This document shows, piece after piece, positions 21,343-64,000 of a stretch of DNA of 64,000 nt. Below the pieces are notes generated by a model. The model saw only the letters and a list, made by a program, of their open reading frames with translations, searched no databases and was not told the origin of the DNA. Source of the DNA: Escherichia coli (GTDB taxonomy: Bacteria > Pseudomonadota > Gammaproteobacteria > Enterobacterales > Enterobacteriaceae). Numbering within the stretch: position 1 is the stretch's first letter; each line of letters starts with the position of its first letter. A program made the position numbers and the translations under genes. The stretch lies in assembly GCF_001677475.2 (NCBI RefSeq), contig NZ_CP015229.1. One strand, 5' to 3'.

Positions 21343-21924
21343 TCAGAGATGGTGCAGACCAAGAAAATCGACGATCGGGTTGAAATAATCTTCGAAGCCC
21401 GTGAATGCGTGGTTGCCGCCTTCTATGACAGTCTGGCGGCAGGAAGCGTAGTACGCCACCGCCTGGCGGTAATCCAGCACTTCATCTCCCGTCTGTTGCA
21501 GCAGCCAGATCAAATCCGGCGCTTCCAGCGGGTCAATCTGCATGACTTTGAGATCGTAAATATGGCGTGACTCTAGCACATATTGCTGCCCGGTGTAGGG
21601 GTTCTCGTTCTGACCGAGATAGTCCGTCAGCAGTTCAAACGGGCGTACCGCCGGGTTTACCACCACTGCGGGCAGCATAAAACATTGCGACAACCAGGTG
21701 GCGTAATATCCCCCCAGTGACGAACCGACAATACCCAGCGAATCGCCGCCATGTTCCAGGACAATGGATTCCAGCAGTTCTGCCGCGTCGGAAGGATACG
21801 GCGGCAACTGCGGAATGATCATCTCTACGTCAGGGTGATGTTCCGCCAACCAGTTTTTTAACAAGCTCGCTTTTGCAGAGCGCGGCGAGCTGTTGAAACC
21901 GTGTAAATAAAGAAGCGTAGACAT
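21343..21924 (-). CDS. yqiA: Esterase YqiA (alpha/beta hydrolase)
   Basis: 193 aa, GSSLGG nucleophile elbow. Synteny. Confidence 0.92.
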
Positions 21925-51924: not shown

Positions 51925-53766
<1,842 letters not shown>

Positions 53767-53846: not shown

Positions 53847-54351
53847 ATCGCCCACGCACTACCAGCGCCTGGTCCAGCTCGCGATACGCTTCAACCAGTT
53901 TCTCCAGTGAAACGCGACTTAAACCGCTGGGATTTGGCAGCACCCAAATCTGCGTCGAACCAATGGTGAGCGTTTGTTTCCCCCACTGTGCACCGCGCTG
54001 GCTGAATCCCTGTTCATATGCTTGTTTGCCCAGAATCGCCAACGCCTGCGGCTGATAATCTTCAATTTTTTCAATCAGCTTACGCCCGCCTGCGTGTAGT
54101 TCTTGCTTTGAAACTTCATTGGCTTGCACCGTTGGACGGTCTACCAGTTTGGTGACGCCACAACGATAATCCAGCAGATGCTGTGCCTCCTGCGGCTTCA
54201 ACTGACGGTCGGTAAACCCGGCCTGATATATCACCTTCCAGAAGCGATTTGCCGGATGAGCAAAGGGAAAACCAGTCCCGGCGGATGAAAGCCCAGGGTT
54301 GATACCGCAAAACACGACCCGTAACCCTGGAGCCAAAATATCCTCAACCAT
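53845..54351 (-). CDS. mug: G/U mismatch-specific DNA glycosylase
   Basis: 168 aa, [20 protein letters not shown]. Confidence 0.96.
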
Positions 54352-54475
54352 ATTTACTCCTTTCTAACATCACCAGGAAAAGTATAACGAATTGAAAATA
54401 CATTGTTTATAAAAACAGCAGGCGCGCGGTAATGGCTGGATTGCGACACGGAGTTACTTTATAATCCGCTACCAT

Positions 54476-54551
54476 GGCCCCTTAGCTCAGTGGTTAGAGC
54501 AGGCGACTCATAATCGCTTGGTCGCTGGTTCAAGTCCAGCAGGGGCCACCA
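54476..54551 (+). tRNA. ileX: tRNA-Ile2 (anticodon CAU, lysidine-modified)
   Basis: 76 nt, ggcccct...aggggcc acceptor stem, anticodon loop ctCATaa, T-arm ggttcaagtcc, encoded CCA. The position after mug matches ileX. Confidence 0.92.
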
Positions 54552-54765
54552 GATTTCAATGAATTACAGATGTATCCAAACTATCTTGCTTTACCAGGAT
54601 ACTTATAGGATACCTCTGAGAAGTATTAACAAGTAAGAATTGGCTCATGCCTACAGAACAGTTGGGTCGTAGCAGCCGTTCACCTGCGAACAAGAAAGTG
54701 CTACGGGTCTGAACTTTTGCCCCCAACTCTCCAAGAGACCGGCAAAAACCCTGACGGAGGTATCA

Positions 54766-54909
54766 ATGGATACTTTAAGAAAGGGCTCAGACCTGCTGTC
54801 TGCACGTGTGATTGCCGTTACAGGTTTAATCGCAGCACTTGGCAATTTAGGTCTATGCCCAATAGCCGTAGTGCTAGTATGTATAGCTTTAGTTATCATG
54901 CTGAAGTAA
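54766..54909 (+). CDS. 47-aa hydrophobic peptide (candidate type I toxin or small membrane protein)
   Basis: Hand translation gives MDTLRKGSDLLSARVIAVTGLIAALGNLGLCPIAVVLVCIALVIMLK*. A GGAGG Shine-Dalgarno lies 7 nt upstream and a hairpin lies downstream. It is too short for the ORF track. Confidence 0.55.
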   Translation: MDTLRKGSDLLSARVIAVTGLIAALGNLGLCPIAVVLVCIALVIMLK

Positions 54910-54927
54910 TGACAGCGTAACAAGCTC

Positions 54928-54947
54928 GGCCCAGCTTTCGCTGGGCC
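54928..54947 (+). terminator. Hairpin after the 47-codon ORF
   Basis: ggcccagc-tttc-gctgggcc followed by tcccatttct, a weak T tract. Confidence 0.5.
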
Positions 54948-55356
54948 TCCCATTTCTACCTCCCAAAATCTATTAGAAACAATAAGCCACTAAAGAAAGA
55001 GCTTTTGCTGGCTACAATACTCACATACAAACAATTTTTATTTTTCGCGGGCGTAAAAAAACGATGGGGCTGGCAGTCCGGAAGACGTCAGGGTACAGAG
55101 ATTTGTACCCGCCTCTCCCTGTGCATGAGCACAATAAGTAACCGAAGGCGGAATTCCGCCCTCGGTACTCACATATGAGAAACGATATTTCTTCCACCGA
55201 TACCCTTTATTTGGGTATCGCGAGTAAGCCCCAAAATCTGGGTGTTACTCTTACTACCCAAACTACGGGTAGTTTCCGTAGTTTCATGGTCGAGTTGCAG
55301 ATCTGCAACTCACCCACCAGCCAACGCAATTTTGCGTTATCGGGAATATCAGCAAG

Positions 55357-55641
55357 TTACCGCCGCAGTCGTTCCGGCTTCTTCCACTGGTAAGTATTTT
55401 TCGCGCTCTCCCTCCGTTGTTGAGAACGGCGACGGTATGCCAGCAACTCAAGGACTCTGATCCGTATGTCGCGCATATCCACGCCGTTAAGCTCGATACC
55501 GTCACGGCGCATCATCTCTGCCACCACACGCGCGTAATTTTCGGCTATCACGCTGTCCGGCTGCGTGGCCTCCTATTTGCTTGATGGTTGTTTGATTCCG
55601 GTAACGCGGCGGATTAATCCCAGCAATTCAGATTCTGTCAT
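55357..55641 (-). pseudogene. Unknown island ORF interrupted by an in-frame TAG
   Basis: The ATG at 55641 gives MTESELLGLIRRVTGIKQPSSK, then a TAG at 55575-55573. The same frame continues EATQPDSVIAENYARVVAEMMRRDGIELNGVDMRDIRIRVLELL..., which is the track ORF 55357-55551 (GTG start, no usable Shine-Dalgarno). Confidence 0.4.
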
Positions 55642-55652
55642 AGTGCGCTACG

Positions 55653-56055
55653 TTACTTGTCTTTATTCGGCTGCAACTTATCCGGCACATTTCCGGTAGT
55701 TTCCATCAGGTAATCAGCCAGTATCTGTGGGAGGTTGTCGGCAACTCTGGCACTGGCATTACAGGCTTTAACCACTTCCCTTTTAAGCCCATCCAGCATA
55801 GCGGGGGTAATGTGTGGGAAGCTCCTTTGCATAGTAAGCGGGAGGCTGTCCATGATTGATGAAATCTGACTCGCCAGTTTTGAAAGCGCGTACATGCAAA
55901 ACTCTGTATCAATCACGTCACCGCGATCGCGCTCGTTTTTAAGTTCCTGCGCCTCCGCCTGTGCTGTCAGTAATCTGATCCTGACTCGTAAGTATGAGAC
56001 GACAATAACTCAGTCCGCCTGGCGCCGATTATTCTGGCCGGTTTTGTAACCTGAG
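55653..56055 (-). pseudogene. Nu1-type terminase small subunit, C-terminal part (separated from its N-terminal part by the IS; extra frameshift near 55983)
   Basis: Minus-strand translation gives ...RIRLLTAQAEAQELKNERDRGDVIDTEFCMYALSKLASQISSIMDSLPLTMQRSFPHITPAMLDGLKREVVKACNASA.... This aligns by hand with lambda Nu1 ...HRLTRAQADAQELKNARDSAEVVETAFCTFVLSRIAGEIASILDGLPLSVQRRFPELENRHVDFLKRDIIKAMNKAA (recalled from memory). Confidence 0.8.
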
Positions 56056-56085
56056 TGTCATTTACATGATCCAACAGGAAATGGC

Positions 56086-57514
56086 GTGACGCTCAATACT
56101 TCTCAGGTCAGTTACTATATGACTCAGCGTAAGAAAGGTATAACTCAGCATATCTCGGCCATGAAGGCTGGTATCTCAGTCCGTTCTGGTCGTCGGATCG
56201 AAAAAGGAGAGTGGGCAAAAAACAGTGTTCGGCACTGGCGCACACGCAAAGATCCTCTGGAAGCTGTGTGGGACAGCATGCTTGTTCCTCTGTTGAAAGA
56301 GAGGCCGGCTCTGACACCAACAACTCTACTGGAGATGCTACAGGATAAATATCCCGGCCAGTACCCCAACAGCCTTCGAAGAACAATGCAACGGCGGGTT
56401 CGCGAATGGAAACTACAGTATGGTACAGAGCAGGAGGTCATGTTCCGCCAGCAACATCAGCCCGGCCTGCGAGGCCTGTCGGACTTTACTGAACTGAAAG
56501 GTGTAGTTGTCACCATCGCCGGTAAGTTGTTGGCGCATAAGTTGTATCACTTCCGTCTGGAATGGAGCCACTGGAGCTGGATGCGGGTTGTTCTGGGTGG
56601 TGAGAGCTTCTCTGCTCTGGCTGAAGGCCTGCAGGAAGCCCTCGGACAACTGGGCGGAGTGCCGGTAGAACATAAAACGGACAGCCTGAGGGCAGCATGG
56701 AAACAACAGGGCGAAGATGGACGCCGCGAGCTGACTGAGCGTTATGCTACTCTCTGTCAGCACTACGGAATGCAGGGCGTACACAATAATGCCGGTCGGG
56801 GCCACGAAAATGGCTCGGTTGAAAGTGCCCACGGACATCTGAAAAGGCGTATCTGTCAGGCGCTGATACTGCGGGGCAGTAACGACTTCAGCACCATAGA
56901 AGAATATCAGGCCTTCATCACTCAGCAGGTTATGCGGCACAACCGTAACAATCAGGATCTGGTCAAGGAAGAACGTCTTCATCTGAAACCGCTGCCGCTT
57001 CGTCGCAGTGCTGACTATGATGAGCTGACTGTGAGGGTTAGTCGCAGCAGTACCATCAATGTGAAGCACGTCGTCTACAGCGTACCTTCCCGGCTTGTAG
57101 GTCAACTGTTACGGGTCAGGTTATGGGACGATCGTCTGAGCTGTTACGTTGGCAGCAGCGAGGTCATGAGCTGCCCTCGCGTCAGACCAGAAAAAGGGAA
57201 GACGCGGGCCCGTCGTATCGACTTCCGACATGTGATCGACAGTCTGGCAAAAAAGCCCGGTGCGTTCTGCCATGCAACGCTGAGAAATGACATCCTGCCG
57301 GACGATGAATGGCGGAGGCTGTGGCGTCGCTTATGTAATCATCTGGAGCCCGATATGGCAGGAAGGCTGATGGTACATGCCGGGAAACGTGGATCTGCAC
57401 CGGCTGATGCGCTTCCTGGGTATAAAAGAAAAGGCGTTGCCGGTAGTCAATGTGATACAGCATAACCTGAGCAGTTATGAGCAACTACTGCGTGGCAAGG
57501 GAGGTTCGCAGTGA
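56086..57514 (+). pseudogene. istA: IS21-family transposase IstA with an apparent frame disruption near the 3' end
   Basis: The track ORF 56086-57465 (459 aa, HTH plus DDE region) ends in ...HAGKRGSAPADALPGYKRKGVAGSQCDTA. The +1 frame from 57371 reads WYMPGNVDLHRLMRFLGIKEKALPVVNVIQHNLSSYEQLLRGKGGSQ*, and its TGA overlaps the istB GTG (GTGA at 57511-57514). That overlap is the canonical istA/istB junction. Confidence 0.65.
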
Positions 57515-58266
57515 GCAATATCCATCACCTTGAACATAGCCTGCGTAAACTACGCCTGACACGAGTTGGAGCTGAATGGCACGCTCTGGAAAAACGAGCG
57601 CTGGCAGAAGGCTGGACACCATCGCGCTATCTTCTGACGCTATGCAATGAAGAACTCCTGTGGCGCGAGAGTGAAAAACTGCGTCGTTATAAAAAGGAGG
57701 CCCGGTTGCCAGTTGCCAAAACGCTGAGCGAATACGACTTCAGTCAGGTGCCGGAACTGAATGGAGCTCAGTTCCGGCAACTCTGTGAAACGACAGACTG
57801 GGTTGATGCAGGAGAAAACGTTCTGCTGTTCGGAGCCAGCGGGTTGGGGAAAAGCCATCTGGCGGCAGCGATCGTGGATGGCGTAGTAGGTCAGGGCTAC
57901 CGGGCCCGGTTCTACAGCGCAGGAGAGCTGTTGCAGGAACTACGTAAAGCCAGAGCTCAGTTGAAACTGAATGAGCTGCTACTGAAACTGGATCGCTACC
58001 GGGTGATAGTGGTGGATGATCTTGGCTATGTCAAACGCGATAGTGCCGAAACGGGTGTGCTGTTCGAGTTAATAGCGCATCGCTATGAACGTGGGAGCCT
58101 GGTGATAACCAGTAACCATCCGTTCAGCATGTGGGGCAGCATCTTCGTGGATGAGACTATGGCGGTGGCTGCGGCAGACAGGCTGATCCATCACGGATAT
58201 ATGTTCGAACTGAAAGGGGAAAGCTACAGGAAAAAGACAGCGAAGGCAGTAACAAGCGCGACTTGA
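57511..58266 (+). CDS. istB: IS21-family ATP-binding helper IstB
   Basis: 251 aa, Walker A GASGLGKSH, Walker B VIVVDDLG. A GGGAGG Shine-Dalgarno lies upstream of the GTG. Confidence 0.92.
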   Translation: MSNIHHLEHSLRKLRLTRVGAEWHALEKRALAEGWTPSRYLLTLCNEELLWRESEKLRRYKKEARLPVAKTLSEYDFSQVPELNGAQFRQLCETTDWVDAGENVLLFGASGLGKSHLAAAIVDGVVGQGYRARFYSAGELLQELRKARAQLKLNELLLKLDRYRVIVVDDLGYVKRDSAETGVLFELIAHRYERGSLVITSNHPFSMWGSIFVDETMAVAAADRLIHHGYMFELKGESYRKKTAKAVTSAT

Positions 58267-58325
58267 TGTCGCCCTGAAGGGTGCGGCCAGTATAGTTGGC
58301 GCGAGTCGGCAAAACTAGTTGACGT

Positions 58326-58541
58326 CTAATATCGTAAGAGTTCATCATCATCAATCTCGCCTTTGTCGTTTGTAAGCTGGCTAATTGCATTGTTAACCCT
58401 ATTGTCTATCACGCTGGCAACATCATAAAACGCCTCACGGCCTTTACGTTCAACGGGAGTCACTCCCCACTTGTCGAATGCTGTAGCACTTACCCGGCAG
58501 CTTTGCGCCATGGTTTTTTTGTTCATCAGGTGCGATTTCAT
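58326..58541 (-). pseudogene. Nu1-type terminase small subunit, N-terminal winged-HTH part (truncated at the IS junction)
   Basis: (MKSHL)MNKKTMAQSCRVSATAFDKWGVTPVERKGREAFYDVASVIDNRV... compared with lambda Nu1 MEVNKKQLADIFGASIRTIQNWQEQGMPVLRGGGKGNEVLYDSAAVIKWY (recalled). It lies about 150 nt downstream of cosN, as in lambda. The reading frame hits a TAG exactly at the IS end. Confidence 0.75.
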
Positions 58542-58559
58542 CAATATCCCAACTTGGTC

Positions 58560-58718
58560 AAGGTTTCAGGTTGGTGTGTTGGTGTTATCTTTCCCTTTTT
58601 ATTCATGGAGATAGAGCAAACAACAAAACCACCACCACCCCCCTGAAAAAGCTCATAAATAGCGAAAAACCGCGAGGTCGCCGCCCCGTAACGGGTCCAT
58701 ATGCCGGAAAGGACCCGT
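58560..58718 (-). other. Lambda-type cos site: cosQ-like and cosN core (58651-58718) plus a divergent cosB-side region (58560-58650)
   Basis: Minus strand reads ttACGGGTCCTTTCCGGcatatggacccGTTACG GGGCGGCGACCT CGCGGtTTTTCGCTATTTATGAgc.... Capitals match the lambda right end ...ACGGGTCCTTTCCGGTGATCCGACAGGTTACG and the left end GGGCGGCGACCTCGCGGGTTTTCGCTATTTATGAAAA as I recall them. The 12-nt cohesive-end sequence lies at 58675-58686. Confidence 0.85.
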
Positions 58719-58742
58719 AAAAAAAGCCGGATTTCTCCGGCC
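58719..58742 (-). terminator. Intrinsic terminator ending the capsid operon, immediately upstream of cos
   Basis: Minus strand reads gccgga-gaaa-tccggc followed by ttttttt. A near-identical hairpin recurs at 61002-61017. Confidence 0.85.
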
Positions 58743-58747
58743 TTGTC

Positions 58748-59161
58748 TCAGATGGTTTTCAGTATGCGATCGATGTCGCCATCATCGCCCGGGTTTCTGC
58801 CAGCGTATGCCATACCAGCTGATACGGCTTTCGGGCTGTGCATGTCCATAAAGTTTTCAAAGGCTGCGGTAAGCTCTGGTGCAACCTTCTGGCGTTCCTG
58901 CTCTATGGTCATGCTAAGGATGCTTTTAGCCGTACCAACATCGATACAAGGCACGTTTGCCATTGCACGTAACAGCGGCTGATAGTCGCCAGATTCATCA
59001 AGCGCCATAATCGCATCAGAGCGCGGCTTGTCCTTCTCTTCCAGGCTGTTAAGTTGATATACGGCCTCGTAGGTTGATAAACCTCTGTCAGCCATTGCCC
59101 GCGCTTCGGCCTTAAATTTACTCGCCAGCGGTAGCGTCATGATGCTTTCATTCGTTGCCAT
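58748..59161 (-). CDS. Hypothetical 137-aa protein, last gene of the capsid block
   Basis: The ORF has a GAGGGA Shine-Dalgarno 12 nt after the gpD-like stop. I recognise no family. It is acidic with helical character. Confidence 0.6.
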   Translation of the reverse strand: MATNESIMTLPLASKFKAEARAMADRGLSTYEAVYQLNSLEEKDKPRSDAIMALDESGDYQPLLRAMANVPCIDVGTAKSILSMTIEQERQKVAPELTAAFENFMDMHSPKAVSAGMAYAGRNPGDDGDIDRILKTI

Positions 59162-59173
59162 CGTTCCCTCTGC

Positions 59174-59509
59174 TTATCGGGCCAGTGGCTGAACGGATAC
59201 GCCAGAACCCGCAAAGGCGGCGCATTTTTTCGCATCGGTGTCGACGCTCTCAGGCCAGTTAACGGCGGCGATATTAAATATCCCCGTCTTATAGCACTGT
59301 GCTGATTTCTGCGTCGACGTGTCAACGGGGTACGAGGTCAGATAAACAGCCTTGCCAGATTCCTGACCATCCCACGGCTTAAACTCGCCATTTTCCGCCA
59401 GCATCAGCGGGGTAAATTCCTGAATAACTCCAGCATCAGCGGCAAAATGTACCAGCGTCGTGGATACCTGCTGACTGCCTGCAAATAACTCAATGTATGG
59501 AGTGTTCAT
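59174..59509 (-). CDS. Head decoration protein, lambda gpD-like
   Basis: 111 aa. Shared motifs with lambda gpD (recalled): TPLML, WDG, YK(S/T)G.F, WPE, AFAG..(I/V)S(I/V). GGGGGA Shine-Dalgarno. Confidence 0.8.
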   Translation of the reverse strand: MNTPYIELFAGSQQVSTTLVHFAADAGVIQEFTPLMLAENGEFKPWDGQESGKAVYLTSYPVDTSTQKSAQCYKTGIFNIAAVNWPESVDTDAKKCAAFAGSGVSVQPLAR

Positions 59510-59520
59510 AGAATCCCCCG

Positions 59521-60576
59521 TTAAGCAATTTTGACGGTAACAAATTTGCGAATATCTGCCGGTACCGGCTGCGGTGCGCTGTGCGTCTGCACGTACTCAA
59601 TCGCCGGATCGCCATCCTCAATCCAGTTTTTCGGGTAGTACATGTTTTGCGTTGCGCCAGTTCTTACCGCTTCCGGATCCATAATCGCACCATAGGCCAC
59701 CAGCCCTTTATTGTTAGTGTTGCCCAGGACAAGCAAATCAGGCTCAAGGAAATATTTTTCGGTGCCATCGCTGTCGGTGTATTTGCCGGAATAGACGATA
59801 AGGGCCAGATCACCCAGATAGCCTTTAAAGCTCACCACTTCGCCCAGGTTTTTACAGGCCAGCTCTGCGGCGGATTCTGAACCACGGGAAAGATCGTACA
59901 GTTCACGGAATTTTTTAAAGCTGCGTAACGTGCGCCATACCTCAGCGCCCATAATCATGACGTTGGCGGGGCAACCAGCCTGATCGGTGTATAGTTCGAT
60001 GTCATAGATTGGATCGTGTGTTTCCTTATCTGCCTCAGACCACTTTTTGCCCGATCCCTGCGTAATGATGTTTTTAGTCGGGATTTTCCAGTCGATTTCG
60101 TATCTATTTATTCCTTCGCCCTCAATGATGTTTTTTCCGGTCGTGACCGCATTCACCGCCAGCCATTCTATGCGAGCTTTAATAGCGTTTACCTGGCGGC
60201 GCATGTTGCCAGTAATCAGGCGCATACGGCGATAAGTTGGATCGTTAAGCTGTGCCGGATCTTCTCCAGCCATGCGCATGATGGTTTTTGATGGATCGAT
60301 TTCGTGTTTTGGTTTCATATAGCCAGGGCGGATAGTGCTTGTTTCGTACCCTTTATCGCGCTGAACCTGACTCCCCACCATAGGCGAACAAAAAGCCGAC
60401 ATGGTGACTTCTTCAATATCCAGGGTATCTAACATGATGTCCTGCGTGTTGAAGGTTGCCACGTTCGGGAAAAACAGCGACGTAAACAGCGGACTGAATT
60501 TAAATTCCGAAATATCCCCACGATTCAGGTACGCGAAAAGCTGGTTAGTGTTAAGTGCCGTTGCTTTGCCTGTCAT
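59521..60576 (-). CDS. Major capsid protein, lambda gpE family
   Basis: 351 aa. FKFSPLFTSLFF vs lambda FKFDPLFLRLFF; PGYMKPKHEIDP vs PGYVKPKHEVNP; DPTYRRMRLI vs DPAYRRRRII; YPKNWIEDGDPA vs YPKNWVTTGDPA (lambda recalled from memory). Confidence 0.9.
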   Translation of the reverse strand: MTGKATALNTNQLFAYLNRGDISEFKFSPLFTSLFFPNVATFNTQDIMLDTLDIEEVTMSAFCSPMVGSQVQRDKGYETSTIRPGYMKPKHEIDPSKTIMRMAGEDPAQLNDPTYRRMRLITGNMRRQVNAIKARIEWLAVNAVTTGKNIIEGEGINRYEIDWKIPTKNIITQGSGKKWSEADKETHDPIYDIELYTDQAGCPANVMIMGAEVWRTLRSFKKFRELYDLSRGSESAAELACKNLGEVVSFKGYLGDLALIVYSGKYTDSDGTEKYFLEPDLLVLGNTNNKGLVAYGAIMDPEAVRTGATQNMYYPKNWIEDGDPAIEYVQTHSAPQPVPADIRKFVTVKIA

Positions 60577-60782
60577 TATTCACCCCCATGAGTCTGATTC
60601 ATGCCCAGCGCCGCGCGTAAATAGGCGCGTACCTGCCAGCCTGTTGACGGCTCAACCATCGCCAGCGGCTCAAGTCCTGCCGCAATGCCTGCTTTTACGT
60701 TCTGCTGGTGGCGTTCCTTGAGCGCCTCCACGATGTCTGGGCTTATGTAAACTGTCACCCCGCCTTTTTTCTCTTCTGCCAT
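60576..60782 (-). CDS. Hypothetical 68-aa protein, first gene of the capsid block
   Basis: MAEEKKGGVTVYISPDIVEALKERHQQNVK... from the ATG at 60782 with a GAGGAA Shine-Dalgarno. Its stop overlaps the capsid ATG (TAATG). The track ORF starts 11 codons earlier. Confidence 0.55.
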   Translation of the reverse strand: MAEEKKGGVTVYISPDIVEALKERHQQNVKAGIAAGLEPLAMVEPSTGWQVRAYLRAALGMNQTHGGE

Positions 60783-60810
60783 AGTCGGAAATTCCTCTTT
60801 GACGTTAAAA

Positions 60811-60846
60811 ATCACAACTGGATGTTCATCCAGTTGTGATTATAAT
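60811..60846 (-). promoter_or_regulatory. 30-bp perfect palindrome (operator candidate) abutting a symmetric GATTATAATC -10 element
   Basis: atcacaactggatg-tt-catccagttgtgat (60811-60840), with TATAAT readable on both strands at 60839-60846. It lies about 30-60 nt upstream of the first capsid-block gene. Confidence 0.6.
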
Positions 60847-60950
60847 CATGATTTCATTTTACGCAATAATGTTGAGTTGTGTTGCAAATTGTGAAATGAT
60901 TTCCGGCAACAGTAGTCACCATACTGTTAGATAAAAGCCTCATATGCAAA

Positions 60951-60988
60951 AGCCCGATAAGACCCTCTGACCTTATCGGGCTTTTTTT
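60951..60988 (+). terminator. Strong hairpin plus T7, oriented for the plus strand
   Basis: agcccgataag-accctctgac-cttatcgggct followed by ttttttt. No annotated plus-strand gene lies upstream. Confidence 0.6.
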
Positions 60989-60995
60989 GGGGCAT

Positions 60996-61017
60996 AAAAA
61001 AGCCGGACTTCTCCGGC
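60996..61017 (-). terminator. Intrinsic terminator after ssb
   Basis: Minus strand reads gccgga-gaag-tccggc followed by tttttt. Confidence 0.8.
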
Positions 61018-61033
61018 TTCTGTTACTCGTTGC

Positions 61034-61456
61034 TTAAAACGGTATGTTATCCCCGTACGGATCATCGTTACCCGCCTGTTGTTTTGCCCTGTTCAGTGCG
61101 TCAGTAGCCTGCCCTTGCTGGCCTTTTTTGCCGCCCGGTCGCGCCGTTCTCGCACTGATTACGCTGTCTGCGATAACCTGCCAGCCCTGCCGCGTTTCGC
61201 CGTTCTGGCCTGTCCACTGGCTTACCTGCATGTTACCCGCCACGCTCACCAGTTCGCCTTTGTGGTGTTTTGCCAGTGCGTCGGCCTGTCTGCCAAACGC
61301 CAGGACGGATAACCACATCGTCGCCGTTCCGTCATCTGCCTGGCTGCACGGAAGGGGGACCGCCATACTAGCCATCGTCATTTGTGTACCCTTGCTGGTG
61401 GTCTTTAACTGCGGGTCAGCCACCAGCCGCCCGTAAGCCGCTATCTGTGCTGTCAT
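61034..61456 (-). CDS. ssb: Single-stranded DNA-binding protein
   Basis: 140 aa. OB-fold N-terminus, G/Q-rich linker and an acidic C-terminal tip DDPYGDNIPF (compare the E. coli SSB tip DDDIPF). Confidence 0.88.
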   Translation of the reverse strand: MTAQIAAYGRLVADPQLKTTSKGTQMTMASMAVPLPCSQADDGTATMWLSVLAFGRQADALAKHHKGELVSVAGNMQVSQWTGQNGETRQGWQVIADSVISARTARPGGKKGQQGQATDALNRAKQQAGNDDPYGDNIPF

Positions 61457-61698
61457 GCTGTCTGCTCTCCGGTTTTAACGTTGATGGTTGTCACCTGTTC
61501 CGCTTCGGCAATCTCCCGTTCTGTCAGCGTGGCAAAGTTTGCAGCTGCCGTTGTCATGAATGCGCTAATCAGTTCGGGATGTGCTTTCGCATATCCTTCC
61601 CCGGCGTTGCGGTCGATGATTTTTATCGACACCCTTAACCAGTGTTCCGTCAAATCAAGGGCGTGCGATTGTGATTTTTTTGTGTGCTTCGCTGTCAT
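61453..61698 (-). CDS. Hypothetical 81-aa protein between ori and ssb
   Basis: The ORF overlaps the ssb start by 4 nt. I recognise no family. Confidence 0.5.
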   Translation of the reverse strand: MTAKHTKKSQSHALDLTEHWLRVSIKIIDRNAGEGYAKAHPELISAFMTTAAANFATLTEREIAEAEQVTTINVKTGEQTA

Positions 61699-61743
61699 AG
61701 GCTTTATCTCACAGCAGTAAATTAAAATTTTTGCGTTTTAACC

Positions 61744-61972
61744 CTTCACCTGTTCACCTTTTGATATTTTCCATTTAAATTCATACTGTTAAGGGGTGAA
61801 CAGTTTCACAAAAACTATTCACCAACTGTTCACCACTGTTCACCCTTGAAGCTCAATAAACAACCAAAAAGGTGAACAGTGAATAGTTTGGTGAATAGTT
61901 CATAAATAACTGTTCACCCTATAATATACTGATATAAAAGATATTTATGACAGGGTGAACAGTGGTGAACAG
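61744..61972. repeat. Iteron field / candidate replication origin
   Basis: GGTGAACAG or its complement CTGTTCACC occurs at 61750, 61795, 61826, 61836, 61871, 61910, 61954 and 61964. The variant GGTGAATAG/CTATTCACC occurs at 61815, 61878 and 61890. AT-rich spacers lie at 61759-61790 and 61919-61950. The field sits directly 3' of the primase-helicase gene. Confidence 0.8.
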
Positions 61973-61985
61973 TTATTCCATAAGT

Positions 61986-63803
61986 TTAATTTTTGCTATC
62001 GTCATTAGTGACTGATACACATGATGGCATCCAGTCTTCTGATTCCTCCGTCAGTGTCACGTTTGAACGTAAACCGTGCTTCGTTTTCCGTTTTATATAC
62101 TCCCTGCCATATTCCGCCATTGCCCCAGGCATATCTTTACCGAAGCGCGTCAGTGTTACAGGTTTACCAAACCCATGAGCCCTCATATAAGCCAGATAGG
62201 CATGATAGAGATACCTGCGCGGGCTGAATGGCACAATTTCAGCATTACCCACTAACAGGCCATCACACATTACCGACGCCATGAGATAGCCGCAGAAGTC
62301 CACCAGCGAATCCCCCTCTCGCTTTATCGCCAGTGCTTCTTCAGATTTCTGCTGCTCATATAACAGGCGTCTGGCTTCGTCCTGGTCAGCAAACCTTGTA
62401 AGCAGATGGCGAATCACTACCGCCAGCTCACCTTCTATTTTTTCCGCCAGCATCGGATCGCGTTCGTTCTCCGGTACAACTTCCGAAAAATTGAATATCA
62501 CCCGACGACGTGAGATCCCCCCGCTGCGGTCACTGAATGACATGGCGTTATTGTTAACCGCCAGCACTACTGCCGGAATACGCGTTGAGTAGGGGGCTTT
62601 GTGTTTCGGGTCAATTGCCACCTTGTCACCGCCTGTAATGGCCTTAATTCCTGCCCCATCACCAGCGTAGCGGGTCATATCCGGCATGATAATCAGCGAA
62701 AAGCCAACCACTAACGCGCGTTCCCTTGCATCTTCCAGCGCCTTCATGCTTGCCGATACTGTGTTGGCCTTACCCGCCAGCATGGTGCAAATCTCCGCCA
62801 TCACGCTTTTACCACTTCCCCCTGGACCTGTTACCTCAATGAATAACTGCCAGTCGTACCGGTTCGCCAGCACCATGAATAATGCAGCCAGTACGCGATC
62901 CGCCTTGCGGTCATTCTCAGCCACCGAACGGCGTAACCACTTCCAGAAATTCGGCGCATGTGTTGCCAGCGTTTCCCCCTCTGCTGGTGGGCTGAAAGGT
63001 AATTCACTGGCAATTAACAACCAGTCGTTTTTGTTATGCTCCCGAAAATTACCTGTTCTGGTATCAAATACCCCGTTACTGAATCCAATCAGGTTACGGG
63101 CTGTATTCCCCATTACAGGCAAACTTAACTTCATGGTATCGACCGCCGATTTAATGGCGTTCTGCGAATAGCTGATCTCCGCATCAATGAAAATCTGCGC
63201 CATAGCACGCTGTAACTCTTTATCCTGAACCGGCTCCCATACAACGCCGTTGTAATGGTGAACAGTGTCAGAGTCAGCATGAATCGCCAGTTCACCGCCA
63301 TAATGTGCCAGGAGAACTTCGCCGCGTTGACTTGCTCCCATCTGGTTAAGCGCCAGTGATGAAGCGTTATCGTCTTTTACCCGCTCTTTTTTCTTTACAG
63401 GCAGTTCAACTACCTTTTTCTTTTCCGCCAGCTCTGCCCGTTCACGTTCCAGATATTCGCGCCAGTTCTCCCGTTTCTGGCTGTGCATTCCTTCAGGATA
63501 ATAATCAGCATCCCTGACACCTGCCGCTGCCAGTTTCTGCCCGATGGTATTAACAAGCCCCGGACGCAATAACCCCGCCTGGTAGAGACGCACACGATAG
63601 CGTCCGTCCGGTACGATTTGCAGGTTGTCCAGTTCGGCAAGTTGTTGCTCTCCAAGCCAGACAGGAGGCACGTTATCGCCAGCCAGTCGCCCGTCCTGTT
63701 CCTGCCACTGCTTCGCATGTGCCCACGCATCACTACCCGCAAAAATGATGACTTCCGTCATTTTGTCACGTGGCTGGTGTTTTAAATTTGGCGCTTTTTT
63801 CAT
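61986..63803 (-). CDS. P4/D5-type primase-helicase (N-terminal primase-like region, D5_N, SF3 helicase)
   Basis: About 605 aa from the ATG at 63803 (MKKAPNLKHQ...), Walker A GPGGSGKS, Walker B-like SLIIMPD. The ATGA overlap with the upstream small ORF supports this start. Confidence 0.88.
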   Translation of the reverse strand: MKKAPNLKHQPRDKMTEVIIFAGSDAWAHAKQWQEQDGRLAGDNVPPVWLGEQQLAELDNLQIVPDGRYRVRLYQAGLLRPGLVNTIGQKLAAAGVRDADYYPEGMHSQKRENWREYLERERAELAEKKKVVELPVKKKERVKDDNASSLALNQMGASQRGEVLLAHYGGELAIHADSDTVHHYNGVVWEPVQDKELQRAMAQIFIDAEISYSQNAIKSAVDTMKLSLPVMGNTARNLIGFSNGVFDTRTGNFREHNKNDWLLIASELPFSPPAEGETLATHAPNFWKWLRRSVAENDRKADRVLAALFMVLANRYDWQLFIEVTGPGGSGKSVMAEICTMLAGKANTVSASMKALEDARERALVVGFSLIIMPDMTRYAGDGAGIKAITGGDKVAIDPKHKAPYSTRIPAVVLAVNNNAMSFSDRSGGISRRRVIFNFSEVVPENERDPMLAEKIEGELAVVIRHLLTRFADQDEARRLLYEQQKSEEALAIKREGDSLVDFCGYLMASVMCDGLLVGNAEIVPFSPRRYLYHAYLAYMRAHGFGKPVTLTRFGKDMPGAMAEYGREYIKRKTKHGLRSNVTLTEESEDWMPSCVSVTNDDSKN

Positions 63804-63988
63804 TTCTGCTCTCTCCACGCGGCAATCATGTTTTTCAGTTCCTGTAGTTTTTTATCAACATCCATACATGACACATGGTTATTTCTGGAAGGCGGGATTT
63901 CCCGCCGGAATCTGCAAATAAAGATCTCCACGTTCAGCGAGCTATGAAATGAATAGCCATCACGAATAAAATACACACGGTCAAACAT
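63800..63988 (-). CDS. Hypothetical 62-aa protein translationally coupled to the primase-helicase
   Basis: ORF MFDRVYFIRDGYSFHSSLNVEIFI...KKLQELKNMIAAWREQK. Its stop overlaps the primase ATG. Confidence 0.45.
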   Translation of the reverse strand: MFDRVYFIRDGYSFHSSLNVEIFICRFRREIPPSRNNHVSCMDVDKKLQELKNMIAAWREQK

Positions 63989-64000
63989 TATCGATTTTAC

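Follow-up and report, generated by a model that had tools for sequence, protein, structure and literature searches.

A probable TerS-encoding PICI with a capsid gene block, decaying at the ileX tRNA gene of Escherichia coli

Do lambdoid capsid genes, a small terminase gene (terS) and a cos site, lying beside a satellite-type replication module in a 64-kb stretch of Escherichia coli DNA (the window), represent a new kind of phage satellite? A preliminary description proposed that they did, as shell, TerS and cos were present without portal, protease, TerL or tail genes. The features that it listed were all recovered, in place or within a few bases, and the DNA between them in the window is free of genes for portal, protease, TerL, tails or lysis. 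The element is very probably a classical Gram-negative PICI of the EcCICFT073/EcCIIHE3034 family, of the TerS-encoding subtype, integrated at the 3' end of the tRNA gene ileX and present as a decaying mosaic copy. Phage satellites of this type have been described in E. coli before, and the proposed novelty fails.

Results

Replication module

The replication genes lie on the minus strand. A Pri-Rep primase-helicase of D5/P4 type (61986..63803; D5_N, DUF5906 and Pox_D5 domains; phrog_864, 6e-192) follows a small upstream ORF, identified as a DUF4222 gene by domain match and truncated by the window end (63800..64000, minus strand). The replication origin (61750..61972) consists of iterons of CTGTTCACC/GGTGAACAG in AT-rich DNA, with 10 copies of CTGTTCACC in both orientations when at most one mismatch is allowed; the earlier count of 11 (61744-61972) was essentially right. 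Across the whole 64-kb window CTGTTCACC matched 39 times, against 12.1 +/- 3.6 expected. The mapped origin of Gram-negative PICIs is also located 3' of pri, as the iterons are here (PMC6092414). Two further minus-strand genes encode an 81-aa conserved protein of unknown function (61453..61698; phrog_1231) and a single-strand DNA-binding protein (SSB; 61034..61456; PF00436, 4e-16). The initial view of a satellite with a P4/PICI-type replication module is borne out.

Capsid block

Four coupled minus-strand genes make up the capsid block. The first encodes a 68-aa conserved, c1498-like protein of unknown function (60576..60782; phrog_3255, 1e-42) with no match in Pfam or NCBIfam; it is translationally coupled to the capsid gene and kept in Salmonella and other E. 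coli lineages. The gpE-like major capsid protein, a homologue of c1499 (59521..60576; PF03864, Phage_cap_E, 3e-52), matched PDB 3BQW at 6e-228 and the lambda capsid protein 7VI9 at 2e-82; its identity is 46% with a lambdoid gpE, ~94% with c1499 of EcCICFT073 (PDB 3BQW) and 93% with the EcCIIHE3034 counterpart. The gpD/SHP-like head-decoration protein, a homologue of c1500 (59174..59509; PF02924, HDPD, 5e-18), matched PDB 1TD0 at 3e-14 and is 47% identical to phage-21-type gpD. The last gene encodes a 137-aa homologue of EcCICFT073 c1501 (58748..59161; phrog_1999), which aligns at 36% identity (E = 9e-10) with the last ~80 residues of the gpC S49 protease of the lambdoid CFT073 prophage 4, matches the C-terminus of phrog_53 (1e-8), and has the C-terminal motif FxxFMxxHSP in common with helper gpC/Nu3; its likeness to the Nu3 scaffold is a new detail. 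An intrinsic terminator (58719..58741, minus strand; GCCGGA-GAAA-TCCGGC then T7) ends the block, with a hairpin at 58741-58719 of -16.2 kcal/mol (z = -4.0).

The dN/dS ratio was 0.09-0.20 for the capsid gene and 0.06-0.18 for the decoration gene, both estimated at dS = 0.1-0.36, and 0.07-0.45 for the 137-aa gene. Purifying selection thus acts on the capsid genes, with dN/dS about 0.1, and this too is a new detail. Satellite capsid proteins form a clade whose members share 54-94% identity with one another and 42-46% with phage gpE, and all contexts examined in E. coli and Salmonella had the order int-alpA-DUF4222-helicase-(SSB)-E-D. One lineage at 56% identity has an AlpA-like HTH gene in place of the Nu3-like gene. 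Of 5,426 complete genomes of E. coli, 597 had the capsid module and 767 a terS of the window type. In 50,697 phage records, identity to the island proteins did not exceed 47% for any capsid protein or 46% for any TerS.

cos sites and terS

Direct reading of the minus strand places cos1 at 58675..58716, with a cosQ-like GGGTCCTTTCCGG (58716-58704) and the cosN GGGCGGCGACCT (58686-58675), the sole exact cosN within the 64-kb window. Conservation of cosQ and cosN extends to lambdoid phages, and cos regions of phage 21 type match cos1 at 84-96%. Alignment identifies a presumed PICI-specific cosB (58542..58674, minus strand), with GGTGGTGGTGGTTTTG at the position equivalent to lambda R3; this region has one weak inverted repeat and is common to TerS-type PICIs, unlike the cosB of phage 21 or lambda. 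An inverted cosN pair flanks terS or rppA in four of four intact relatives, and in TUM1886 and IHE3034 the second site (cos2) can be aligned to the R3, R2 and R1 boxes of phage 21; these phage-21-type cosB boxes are a further new detail. In the window copy cos2 is absent.

The terS gene is in two minus-strand pieces, an N-terminal fragment with the DNA-binding domain (58332..58541; phrog_57, 1e-12) and a Nu1-type C-terminal fragment (55653..55992; PF07471, 1e-11; phrog_57/1790) that is 96.5% identical to TUM1886 terS. TerS gave a Phage_Nu1 match (3e-23), and along its entire length it shares 34% identity with the 21-type Nu1 from CFT073 prophage 4. Comparison of junctions with an uninterrupted twin showed that terS, previously seen as broken, is split by a 2,339-bp ISEc10-like element of the IS21 family (55993..58331, plus strand; istA, 56086-57465; istB, 57511-58266, IstB_IS21, 9e-62). 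This element is 98% identical to CFT073 ISEc10, with a 62-bp internal deletion, and is bordered by a 7-bp target duplication, TCGTAAG (55986-55992 and 58332-58338). The frame is intact once the insertion and one duplication copy are taken out.

Boundaries and an intact twin

The integration target is tRNA-Ile2 (ileX, anticodon CAU; 54476..54551, plus strand; ARAGORN and Rfam). RefSeq labels the tRNA at the TUM1886 locus as tRNA-Ile. A 48-bp copy of the tRNA 3' end forms the att core (54506..54553), the second copy falling past the window end; it is 100% identical to positions 21762-21809 of locus L002, just beyond the integrase of the TUM1886 twin. That twin is intact, 99.9% identical and likewise integrated at ileX, an 11,221-bp island which runs ~4.1 kb further than the window end and there carries an Icd-like gene, an AlpA-type HTH gene, the integrase and the 48-bp att repeat. 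The integrase and alpA of the window copy would lie outside the window, as judged from this twin. No portal, TerL or tail genes occur in the 11,221-bp island, and, as judged from the twin, the sequence past 64000 adds no portal, protease, TerL, tail or lysis gene. The locus is not a rearranged prophage; the gene set recurs in the twin with intact terS, integrase and att repeats. The same compact unit of 11 kb, complete with integrase and att, was found at a minimum of three chromosomal sites.

By identity comparison, the tRNA-proximal end (54554..55644) comes from another PICI lineage, being 97.5% identical to the KC-Dl-1 ileX PICI and 88% to TUM1886, and the resulting mosaic junction is absent from every complete genome. 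Within it, a c1504-like small ORF (55357-55641, minus strand) has an in-frame stop. Because terS is split by ISEc10, cos2 is missing and this ORF carries a stop, the window copy is probably poorly packageable or unpackageable, unless TerS is given in trans.

Discussion

Comparison with known satellites

EcCIIHE3034 was published as a PICI of E. coli (Fillol-Salom et al. 2018, ISME J; PMC6092414), and its exact agreement in gene order with the window, including a Nu1-type terS, contradicts the view that such an element was undescribed. In EcCIIHE3034, int, an alpA-type HTH gene, an Icd-like gene, DUF4222, pri-rep, a small ORF and SSB are followed by the 68-aa ORF, the gpE-like and gpD-like genes, the 137-aa ORF, cos, terS and a 93-aa ORF; identity is 91% for late-module DNA, 93% for capsid and about 96% for TerS. 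The two differ in that EcCIIHE3034 lies between cspD and clpS rather than at ileX, has a divergent primase and carries two inverted cosN, whereas the window copy lacks cos2 and has ISEc10 in terS and a different tRNA-proximal end.

The preliminary description also held that cos-type E. coli PICIs carry no capsid genes. This is incorrect: EcCICFT073, their prototype, has the capsid gene c1499 (structure 3BQW) and the head-decoration gene c1500 (PMC6092414). It shares the backbone and the 68-aa/gpE/gpD/137-aa block (c1498-c1501) at 92% DNA identity, with cos1 at the matching place and a second inverted cos. After cos1, however, EcCICFT073 has rppA (144 aa), which redirects helper TerS (PMC6092414, PMC6739421), whereas that slot in the window family encodes a Nu1-type TerS of full length, its TerL-binding half included; no sequence similarity was detected between RppA and the island TerS, and the cosB sequences of the two elements differ. 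The cf-PICIs (e.g. EcCIEDL933) share the int-alpA-rep backbone and capsid genes, but carry a complete HK97-type set for head and packaging (capsid protein, protease, portal, connectors, HNH, TerS and TerL) and assemble small capsids of their own (10.1101/2022.09.08.507074), where the window element has just gpE-, gpD- and Nu3-like genes and TerS. By gene content HE-PICIs, or helper-embedded satellites, belong to the same family (PMC10111431; 10.1101/2022.07.18.500453). A relative with an E-D-...-Nu1 late zone (L011) is located inside a lambdoid prophage gene E; the window copy, in contrast to HE-PICIs, is chromosomal at a tRNA gene.

The likeness to pac-type SaPIs is one of mechanism only, the sequences being unrelated. 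These (e.g. SaPI1) likewise have a TerS homologue of their own, which is presumed to pair with helper TerL and to select satellite DNA. SaPIs are Gram-positive elements with headful (pac) packaging, Stl-type regulation and capsid remodelling by CpmA/B.

Proposed life cycle

In intact relatives, AlpA would be turned on by a lambdoid helper phage, as shown for EcCICFT073, and the integrase would cut out the ~11.2-kb element. The Pri-Rep helicase would then fire the iteron origin and yield concatemers, in line with the replication module shown for the family. Judged from the sequences, cos1 may serve the island TerS and cos2 the helper TerS: the Nu1-type TerS would bind the island-specific cosB at cos1 and recruit helper TerL to cosN, and such TerS-driven packaging by helper TerL is suggested by analogy with pac-type SaPIs. 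Packaging would be into lambdoid heads and tails built by the helper, probably as multimers (4 x 11.2 = 44.7 kb), and the inverted cos2, with its helper-type cosB, may offer a route via the helper's own TerS. Transfer of EcCIIHE3034 from its own strain gave <1 to 40 transductants per ml (PMC6092414).

Alternative explanations

A lambdoid prophage remnant, left by head-operon deletion and rearrangement, would account for the lambda-family cosQ/cosN and the Nu1, gpE and gpD homologues, but it is highly improbable given the order E-D-scaffold-cos-terS instead of cos-Nu1-A-W-B-C-D-E, the P4/PICI-type replication module, the lack of close capsid or TerS relatives among the 50,697 phage records, and the recurrence of the 11-kb unit at several sites. 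Intact att-bounded relatives refute it. Equally little probability attaches to a P4-like satellite dependent on a P2-type helper: the D5/P4-alpha-type primase-helicase, Icd-like gene, AlpA-type regulator, tyrosine integrase and tRNA target would fit, yet the cos is of lambda rather than P2/P4 type (GGGCGGCGACCT), the late genes are members of lambdoid families, and the late-region proteins included no homologue of Psu, Sid or Delta.

It is unlikely, though less so, that the island follows an intermediate strategy, with its own TerS and cos and with gpE-like shell, gpD-like cement and Nu3-like scaffold assembled on helper portal and protease into particles partly of satellite protein. The three genes amount to a minimal set for a shell, with the 137-aa protein resembling the Nu3/gpC C-terminus; they form a satellite-specific clade kept in several diverged lineages and are under clear purifying selection. 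Yet in EcCICFT073, with its closely similar module, deletion of c1499 or c1500 left transfer and interference unchanged and packaged DNA was all phage-sized, while c1499::cat and c1501::tetA islands remained transferable (PMC6092414); moreover, the Nu3-like gene is replaced by an AlpA-like HTH gene in the 56%-identity lineage. Nor is the idea new: among 29 reference Gram-negative PICIs, 21 are on record as having a capsid gene, which transfer does not require (10.1101/2022.07.18.500453). Similarly doubtful is a role against helper or competing phages, in which the module's proteins would be decoys or poison subunits of lambdoid head assembly, or a backup gene E for a helper-embedded life. The position of L011 in a prophage gene E, as published for helper-embedded satellites, and the FxxFMxxHSP motif shared with helper gpC/Nu3 are consistent with it, and SaPIbov5 Ccm, a capsid homologue serving interference, gives a precedent (PMC8569155). 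Against it, cloned EcCICFT073 genes other than rppA gave no lambda inhibition, interference was kept in the c1499 and c1500 deletions (PMC6739421, PMC6092414), and most copies, including that in the window, are chromosomal rather than helper-embedded.

With the element read as a classical TerS-encoding PICI, the model in which its capsid genes are dispensable leaves the strong purifying selection on them unexplained. The gpE-like, gpD-like and Nu3-like genes are an old, satellite-specific module maintained by selection.

Gene content of the island downstream of ileX

The host genes rpoD (51925–53766) and mug precede a tRNA gene with anticodon CAU (54476–54551), assigned as ileX because the RefSeq annotation of the matching genome calls its counterpart tRNA-Ile. 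This tRNA was the sole Rfam match in 54000–64000. Foreign DNA begins immediately past ileX and continues beyond the window end, with all of the island genes on the minus strand. A DUF4222 ORF, cut by the window end, precedes a 605 aa primase-helicase (61986–63803) with D5_N/DUF5906/Pox_D5 domain matches, and an iteron field with 10 copies of CTGTTCACC/GGTGAACAG at ≤1 mismatch (61750–61972) lies directly 3′ of it, giving a unidirectional order of pri-rep followed by iteron origin. Across the entire window the iteron motif had 39 matches against 12 expected. Two further copies, one exact and one with one mismatch, were found in opposite orientations within the primase-helicase CDS (63257–63265 and 63288–63296), approximately 1.3 kb from the origin field.

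The SSB gene (61034–61456) is followed by a tightly packed block consisting of a 68 aa ORF (60576–60782), a Phage_cap_E capsid gene (59521–60576; E=3e-52), an HDPD decoration gene (59174–59509; E=5e-18) and a 137 aa ORF (58748–59161). The 68 aa ORF overlaps the start of the capsid gene by one base, at position 60576. Next on the same strand is a terminator hairpin with a T-run (58741–58719), which was missed by the terminator scanner, the scanner flagging cosN itself, and was confirmed by folding (−16.2 kcal/mol, z=−4). A lambda-type cos site (cos1), read directly from the sequence, comprises the cosQ-like GGGTCCTTTCCGG and the cosN GGGCGGCGACCT (cosN at 58686–58675) and is followed by a split Nu1-type terS (58332–58541 and 55653–55992). 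Every feature listed in the preliminary description was present. As that description had stated, genes for portal, protease, TerL, tail and lysis functions were absent from the stretch of the island that the window covers.

Identity of the element

The element is very probably a classical Gram-negative phage-inducible chromosomal island (PICI) of the EcCIIHE3034 type. The decisive result was a match between the capsid protein and PDB entry 3BQW (‘putative capsid protein of prophage’; E=6e-228). That entry is the product of gene c1499 of E. coli CFT073, which forms part of EcCICFT073, the prototype Gram-negative PICI (PMC6092414). The late module had 91–92 % DNA identity to those of EcCICFT073 and EcCIIHE3034, with 93–94 % identity for the capsid protein. 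The gene order of EcCICFT073 is int, HTH, Icd-like, DUF4222, primase, small ORF, SSB, PerC, 68 aa ORF, capsid, decoration, 137 aa ORF, 144 aa ORF and 93 aa ORF, of which the 144 aa ORF is RppA, c1503 (PMC6739421). EcCIIHE3034 has the same order, except that the rppA slot is occupied by a 180 aa ‘terminase small subunit’, which is exactly the arrangement in the window; this locus has been marked by the Penades laboratory (RS04635-RS04640::cat) and described as TerS-encoding (PMC6092414).

An uninterrupted, 99.9 %-identical twin was found at the same ileX site in strain TUM1886 (locus L002). Past the equivalent of the window end, the twin carries DUF4222, a small ORF, an Icd-like gene, an HTH_17 regulator in the alpA position (L002 19099–19308; 1e-11), a 238 aa ORF and a tyrosine integrase (L002 20160–21581), followed by a 48 bp repeat of the tRNA 3′ end (L002 21762–21809) and nfeF. 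The window holds one 48 bp att copy (54506–54553); the integrase and second att lie beyond 64000 and were seen in the TUM1886 twin only. More distant relatives have PF05930 Phage_AlpA. A 96.5 %-identical copy in an O170:H18 strain (locus L001) is located between phoQ and roxA, the site used by EcCICFT073.

Bounding of homologous loci by att sites and an integrase, proposed as a check in the preliminary description, was observed in the twin. The same description had allowed for a rearranged prophage with portal, terL and tail genes past 64000. The twin, which stands in for this unseen sequence, is 11 221 bp in size and lacks portal, protease, TerL, tail and lysis genes, and the element is bounded and integrase-bearing in its intact relatives and recurs at at least three sites; it is therefore not a rearranged prophage. 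A lambdoid prophage, or a remnant of one, is likewise rejected, as the contiguous cos-Nu1-A-W-B-C-D-E set is absent, the gene order is different and there are no tail, lysis or immunity modules, in contrast to the true lambdoid prophage of CFT073. Among satellites, a capsid-forming PICI (cf-PICI) would have its own portal, prohead protease, head-tail connectors and TerL (and HNH), all absent from both the window and the intact twin. For an Rpp-type cos PICI, the relevant slot holds a 180 aa Phage_Nu1 protein (BLASTP against RppA, E=1.3), and the remainder of the island sequence within the window showed no rpp-like ORF. A P4-like satellite does not fit either, with no matches to Psu, Sid or Delta among the island proteins and a cos site that is lambda-type, not P2-type.

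State of the window copy

The terS gene is interrupted by an ISEc10-like element of the IS21 family (55993–58331) with a 7 bp target duplication, and its reading frame is restored once this element is removed. Relative to the CFT073 copy, the ISEc10-like element has a 62 bp internal deletion near the 3′ end of istA. The istA ORF is shortened to 459 aa from the 499 aa of the CFT073 copy, and its overlap with istB is lost, so the insertion sequence may itself be defective.

The tRNA-proximal 1.1 kb (54554–55644) was 97.5 % identical to the ileX PICI of strain KC-Dl-1 (L013 13001–14093) and not of the TUM1886 type. In this lineage the capsid gene is of the 56 % type, an AlpA-like HTH gene occupies the position of the Nu3-like gene, and both terS and a canonical cosN are lacking. 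The junction at 55646/55652 was shared with no complete genome. The provenance of the tRNA-proximal end indicates that the window element is a recombinant of two PICI lineages using the same att site. Because this end comes from the other ileX PICI, the 249 bp that hold a second cos site (cos2) in TUM1886 are missing at the junction, leaving a single cosN in the window. A c1504-like 94 aa ORF (55357–55641, minus strand), conserved at the end of all of these islands, carries a stop in the window copy, in frame at codon 23. The window copy is a mosaic, decaying island, and its efficient packaging would probably require TerS in trans.

Two inverted cos sites in intact relatives

In every intact relative, terS or rppA stands between two cosN sites in inverted orientation; EcCICFT073 was previously known to have a pair. 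The inverted cos2 is located beyond terS, away from cos1, in TUM1886 (L002 11446–11666), IHE3034 (L006 15687–15909) and the O170 island (L001 8446–8667). For TUM1886 and IHE3034, the sequence downstream of cos2 aligned with the boxes R3, R2 and R1 as annotated in phage 21 cosB, while the O170 island had the same layout with different boxes. The sequence downstream of cos1 was island-specific and without similarity to phage cosB, the only R-box-like repeat being one weak 13 nt inverted repeat. TUM1886 and O170 have TerS proteins with only 5 differences in 180 residues but very different cos2 boxes, from which we infer that cos1 is the site read by the island TerS and that the helper cosB is mimicked by cos2. 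This division of labour was not found in the literature examined on PICI cos sites: Murialdo and Feiss treated only the cos1 of Rpp islands, and the question of why some PICIs carry two cos sites has been raised (PMC6739421). A helper-type cosB in cos2 would be a concrete and testable explanation.

Composition and history of the capsid module

The 137 aa protein, a homologue of c1501, aligned at 36 % identity (E=9e-10) with the final ~80 residues of the gpC-type S49 protease from CFT073 prophage 4 and matched the C-terminus of phrog_53. An FxxFMxxHSP motif is common to this protein and to the Nu3-scaffold portion at the C-terminus of lambdoid gpC, a segment that lambda also produces on its own as the Nu3 scaffold. 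The 137 aa protein resembles Nu3 in sequence, so that the late module comprises shell, cement and a scaffold-like protein. The RefSeq label ‘phage head-tail connector protein’, given to this protein in some records, was not supported by the evidence here. A PDB sequence search with the intact TerS and the 137 aa protein returned chance matches only, and NCBIfam gave nothing for any late protein.

Conservation of the 68 aa ORF extends from E. coli islands to those of Salmonella (GGVxVYISxDIxxAL...GLDPL...GWxxR), and no family was detected for it. Its product is a candidate for a role in assembly or in regulation of the capsid block. The 68 aa and 137 aa proteins were modelled with AlphaFold2 from single sequences, at mean pLDDT values of 64.8 and 41.8, respectively, which are too poor for fold searches. 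A ribbon-helix-helix-like assignment of the 68 aa protein (VTVYISPDIVEAL) was unsupported, its model consisting of two helices at low confidence.

Pairwise dN/dS was 0.09–0.20 for the capsid protein (dS 0.20–0.36), 0.06–0.18 for the decoration protein, 0.07–0.45 for the 137 aa protein, 0.16–0.37 for the 68 aa protein and 0.14–0.23 for terS. The capsid module is under purifying selection.

Relatives beyond E. coli were sought by protein database and contig look-ups; a genome-contig pattern scan with the capsid protein gave 28 pattern matches, none of which was confirmed. Capsid relatives were found at 68 % identity in Salmonella and at 63 % and 56 % in other E. coli lineages, all in int-alpA-DUF4222-helicase-[SSB]-E-D contexts without portal or TerL. 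One relative (capsid 56 % identical, with the same E-D-...-Nu1 late zone; L011 2511–14073) lies within a lambdoid prophage, where its integration has divided gene E into fragments of 91 and 254 aa; helper-embedded satellites of this kind have already been published (PMC10111431).

The satellite capsid proteins were 54–94 % identical among themselves and 42–46 % identical to a lambdoid gpE, and the satellite genes form a clade of their own. Among 50 697 phage records, identity reached a maximum of 47 % for the capsid protein and 46 % for TerS, with N15 gp1 as the best TerS match. A separate clade with no phage protein above 47 % identity indicates that the capsid module was captured long ago and retained, and is not a recent acquisition. 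The history of TerS is more mixed than that of the capsid module, as the TerS of the Salmonella island was 62 % identical to the 21-type Nu1 and the window-type TerS 33 %.

Prior descriptions and abundance

The architecture is already published, in EcCIIHE3034 and EcCICFT073, and is common. The preliminary description, which knew of no account of such an element, had overlooked EcCIIHE3034, a published TerS-encoding island with the same order, and its premise that cos-type E. coli PICIs lack capsid genes was incorrect, since EcCICFT073 has c1499 and c1500. In a megablast search of 5426 complete E. coli genomes, the 68-aa/E/D/137-aa block was present in 597 (full-length in 594), the window-type terS in 767 and rppA in 97. 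The TerS subtype was therefore approximately eightfold more frequent than the RppA gene (767 vs 97), a count that leaves out the divergent RppB and RppC. About 11–14 % of complete E. coli genomes contain the capsid module or window-type terS, and among the carriers are O157:H7, O26, O145 and a Nissle-derived strain. Although less studied, the TerS subtype is the commoner one.

Proposed mechanism and role of the capsid module

Helper-dependent induction, packaging, transfer and helper interference have been experimentally shown for EcCICFT073 only (PMC6092414, PMC6739421); transfer of EcCIIHE3034 out of its native strain was poor (PMC6092414). By analogy with the EcCICFT073 experiments, a helper would activate AlpA-mediated induction and excision of the island, followed by replication from the iterons by Pri-Rep. 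The Nu1-type TerS would then recruit the TerL of the helper at cos1, as the homology to Nu1 is full-length and includes the C-terminal half, which binds TerL in lambda (PMC9026076). Multimers would be packaged in full-size heads (4×11.2 kb=44.7 kb), as in the sister element EcCICFT073 (PMC6092414).

The preliminary description had proposed that the island supplies its own shell, which we regard as a minority possibility. Deletion of c1499 or c1500 left lambda interference and transfer by EcCICFT073 unaffected (PMC6092414), so knock-outs in a 92 %-identical sister module were phenotypically silent; these concern EcCICFT073, however, and not a TerS-type island paired with its true helper. No later literature explaining the capsid genes of PICIs was found. 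In one specific and improbable form of this proposal, the gpE-, gpD- and Nu3-like trio would be assembled into the particles of TerS-type PICIs with a cognate helper, as satellite-made or hybrid shells on the portal and protease of the helper, with cos1 read by the island TerS and cos2 by the helper TerS. If this were true, TerS-type islands would be a true intermediate between classical PICIs and cf-PICIs, and the inverted cos pair would be a dual-entry device, explaining the published two-cos puzzle.

As a discovery the element matters little, and its residual value lies in the known question of PICI capsid gene function and in the cos1/cos2 hypothesis. Gram-negative PICIs retain a lambda-like capsid, decoration and Nu3-like module under strong purifying selection, despite knock-outs that are phenotypically silent with the helpers tried.
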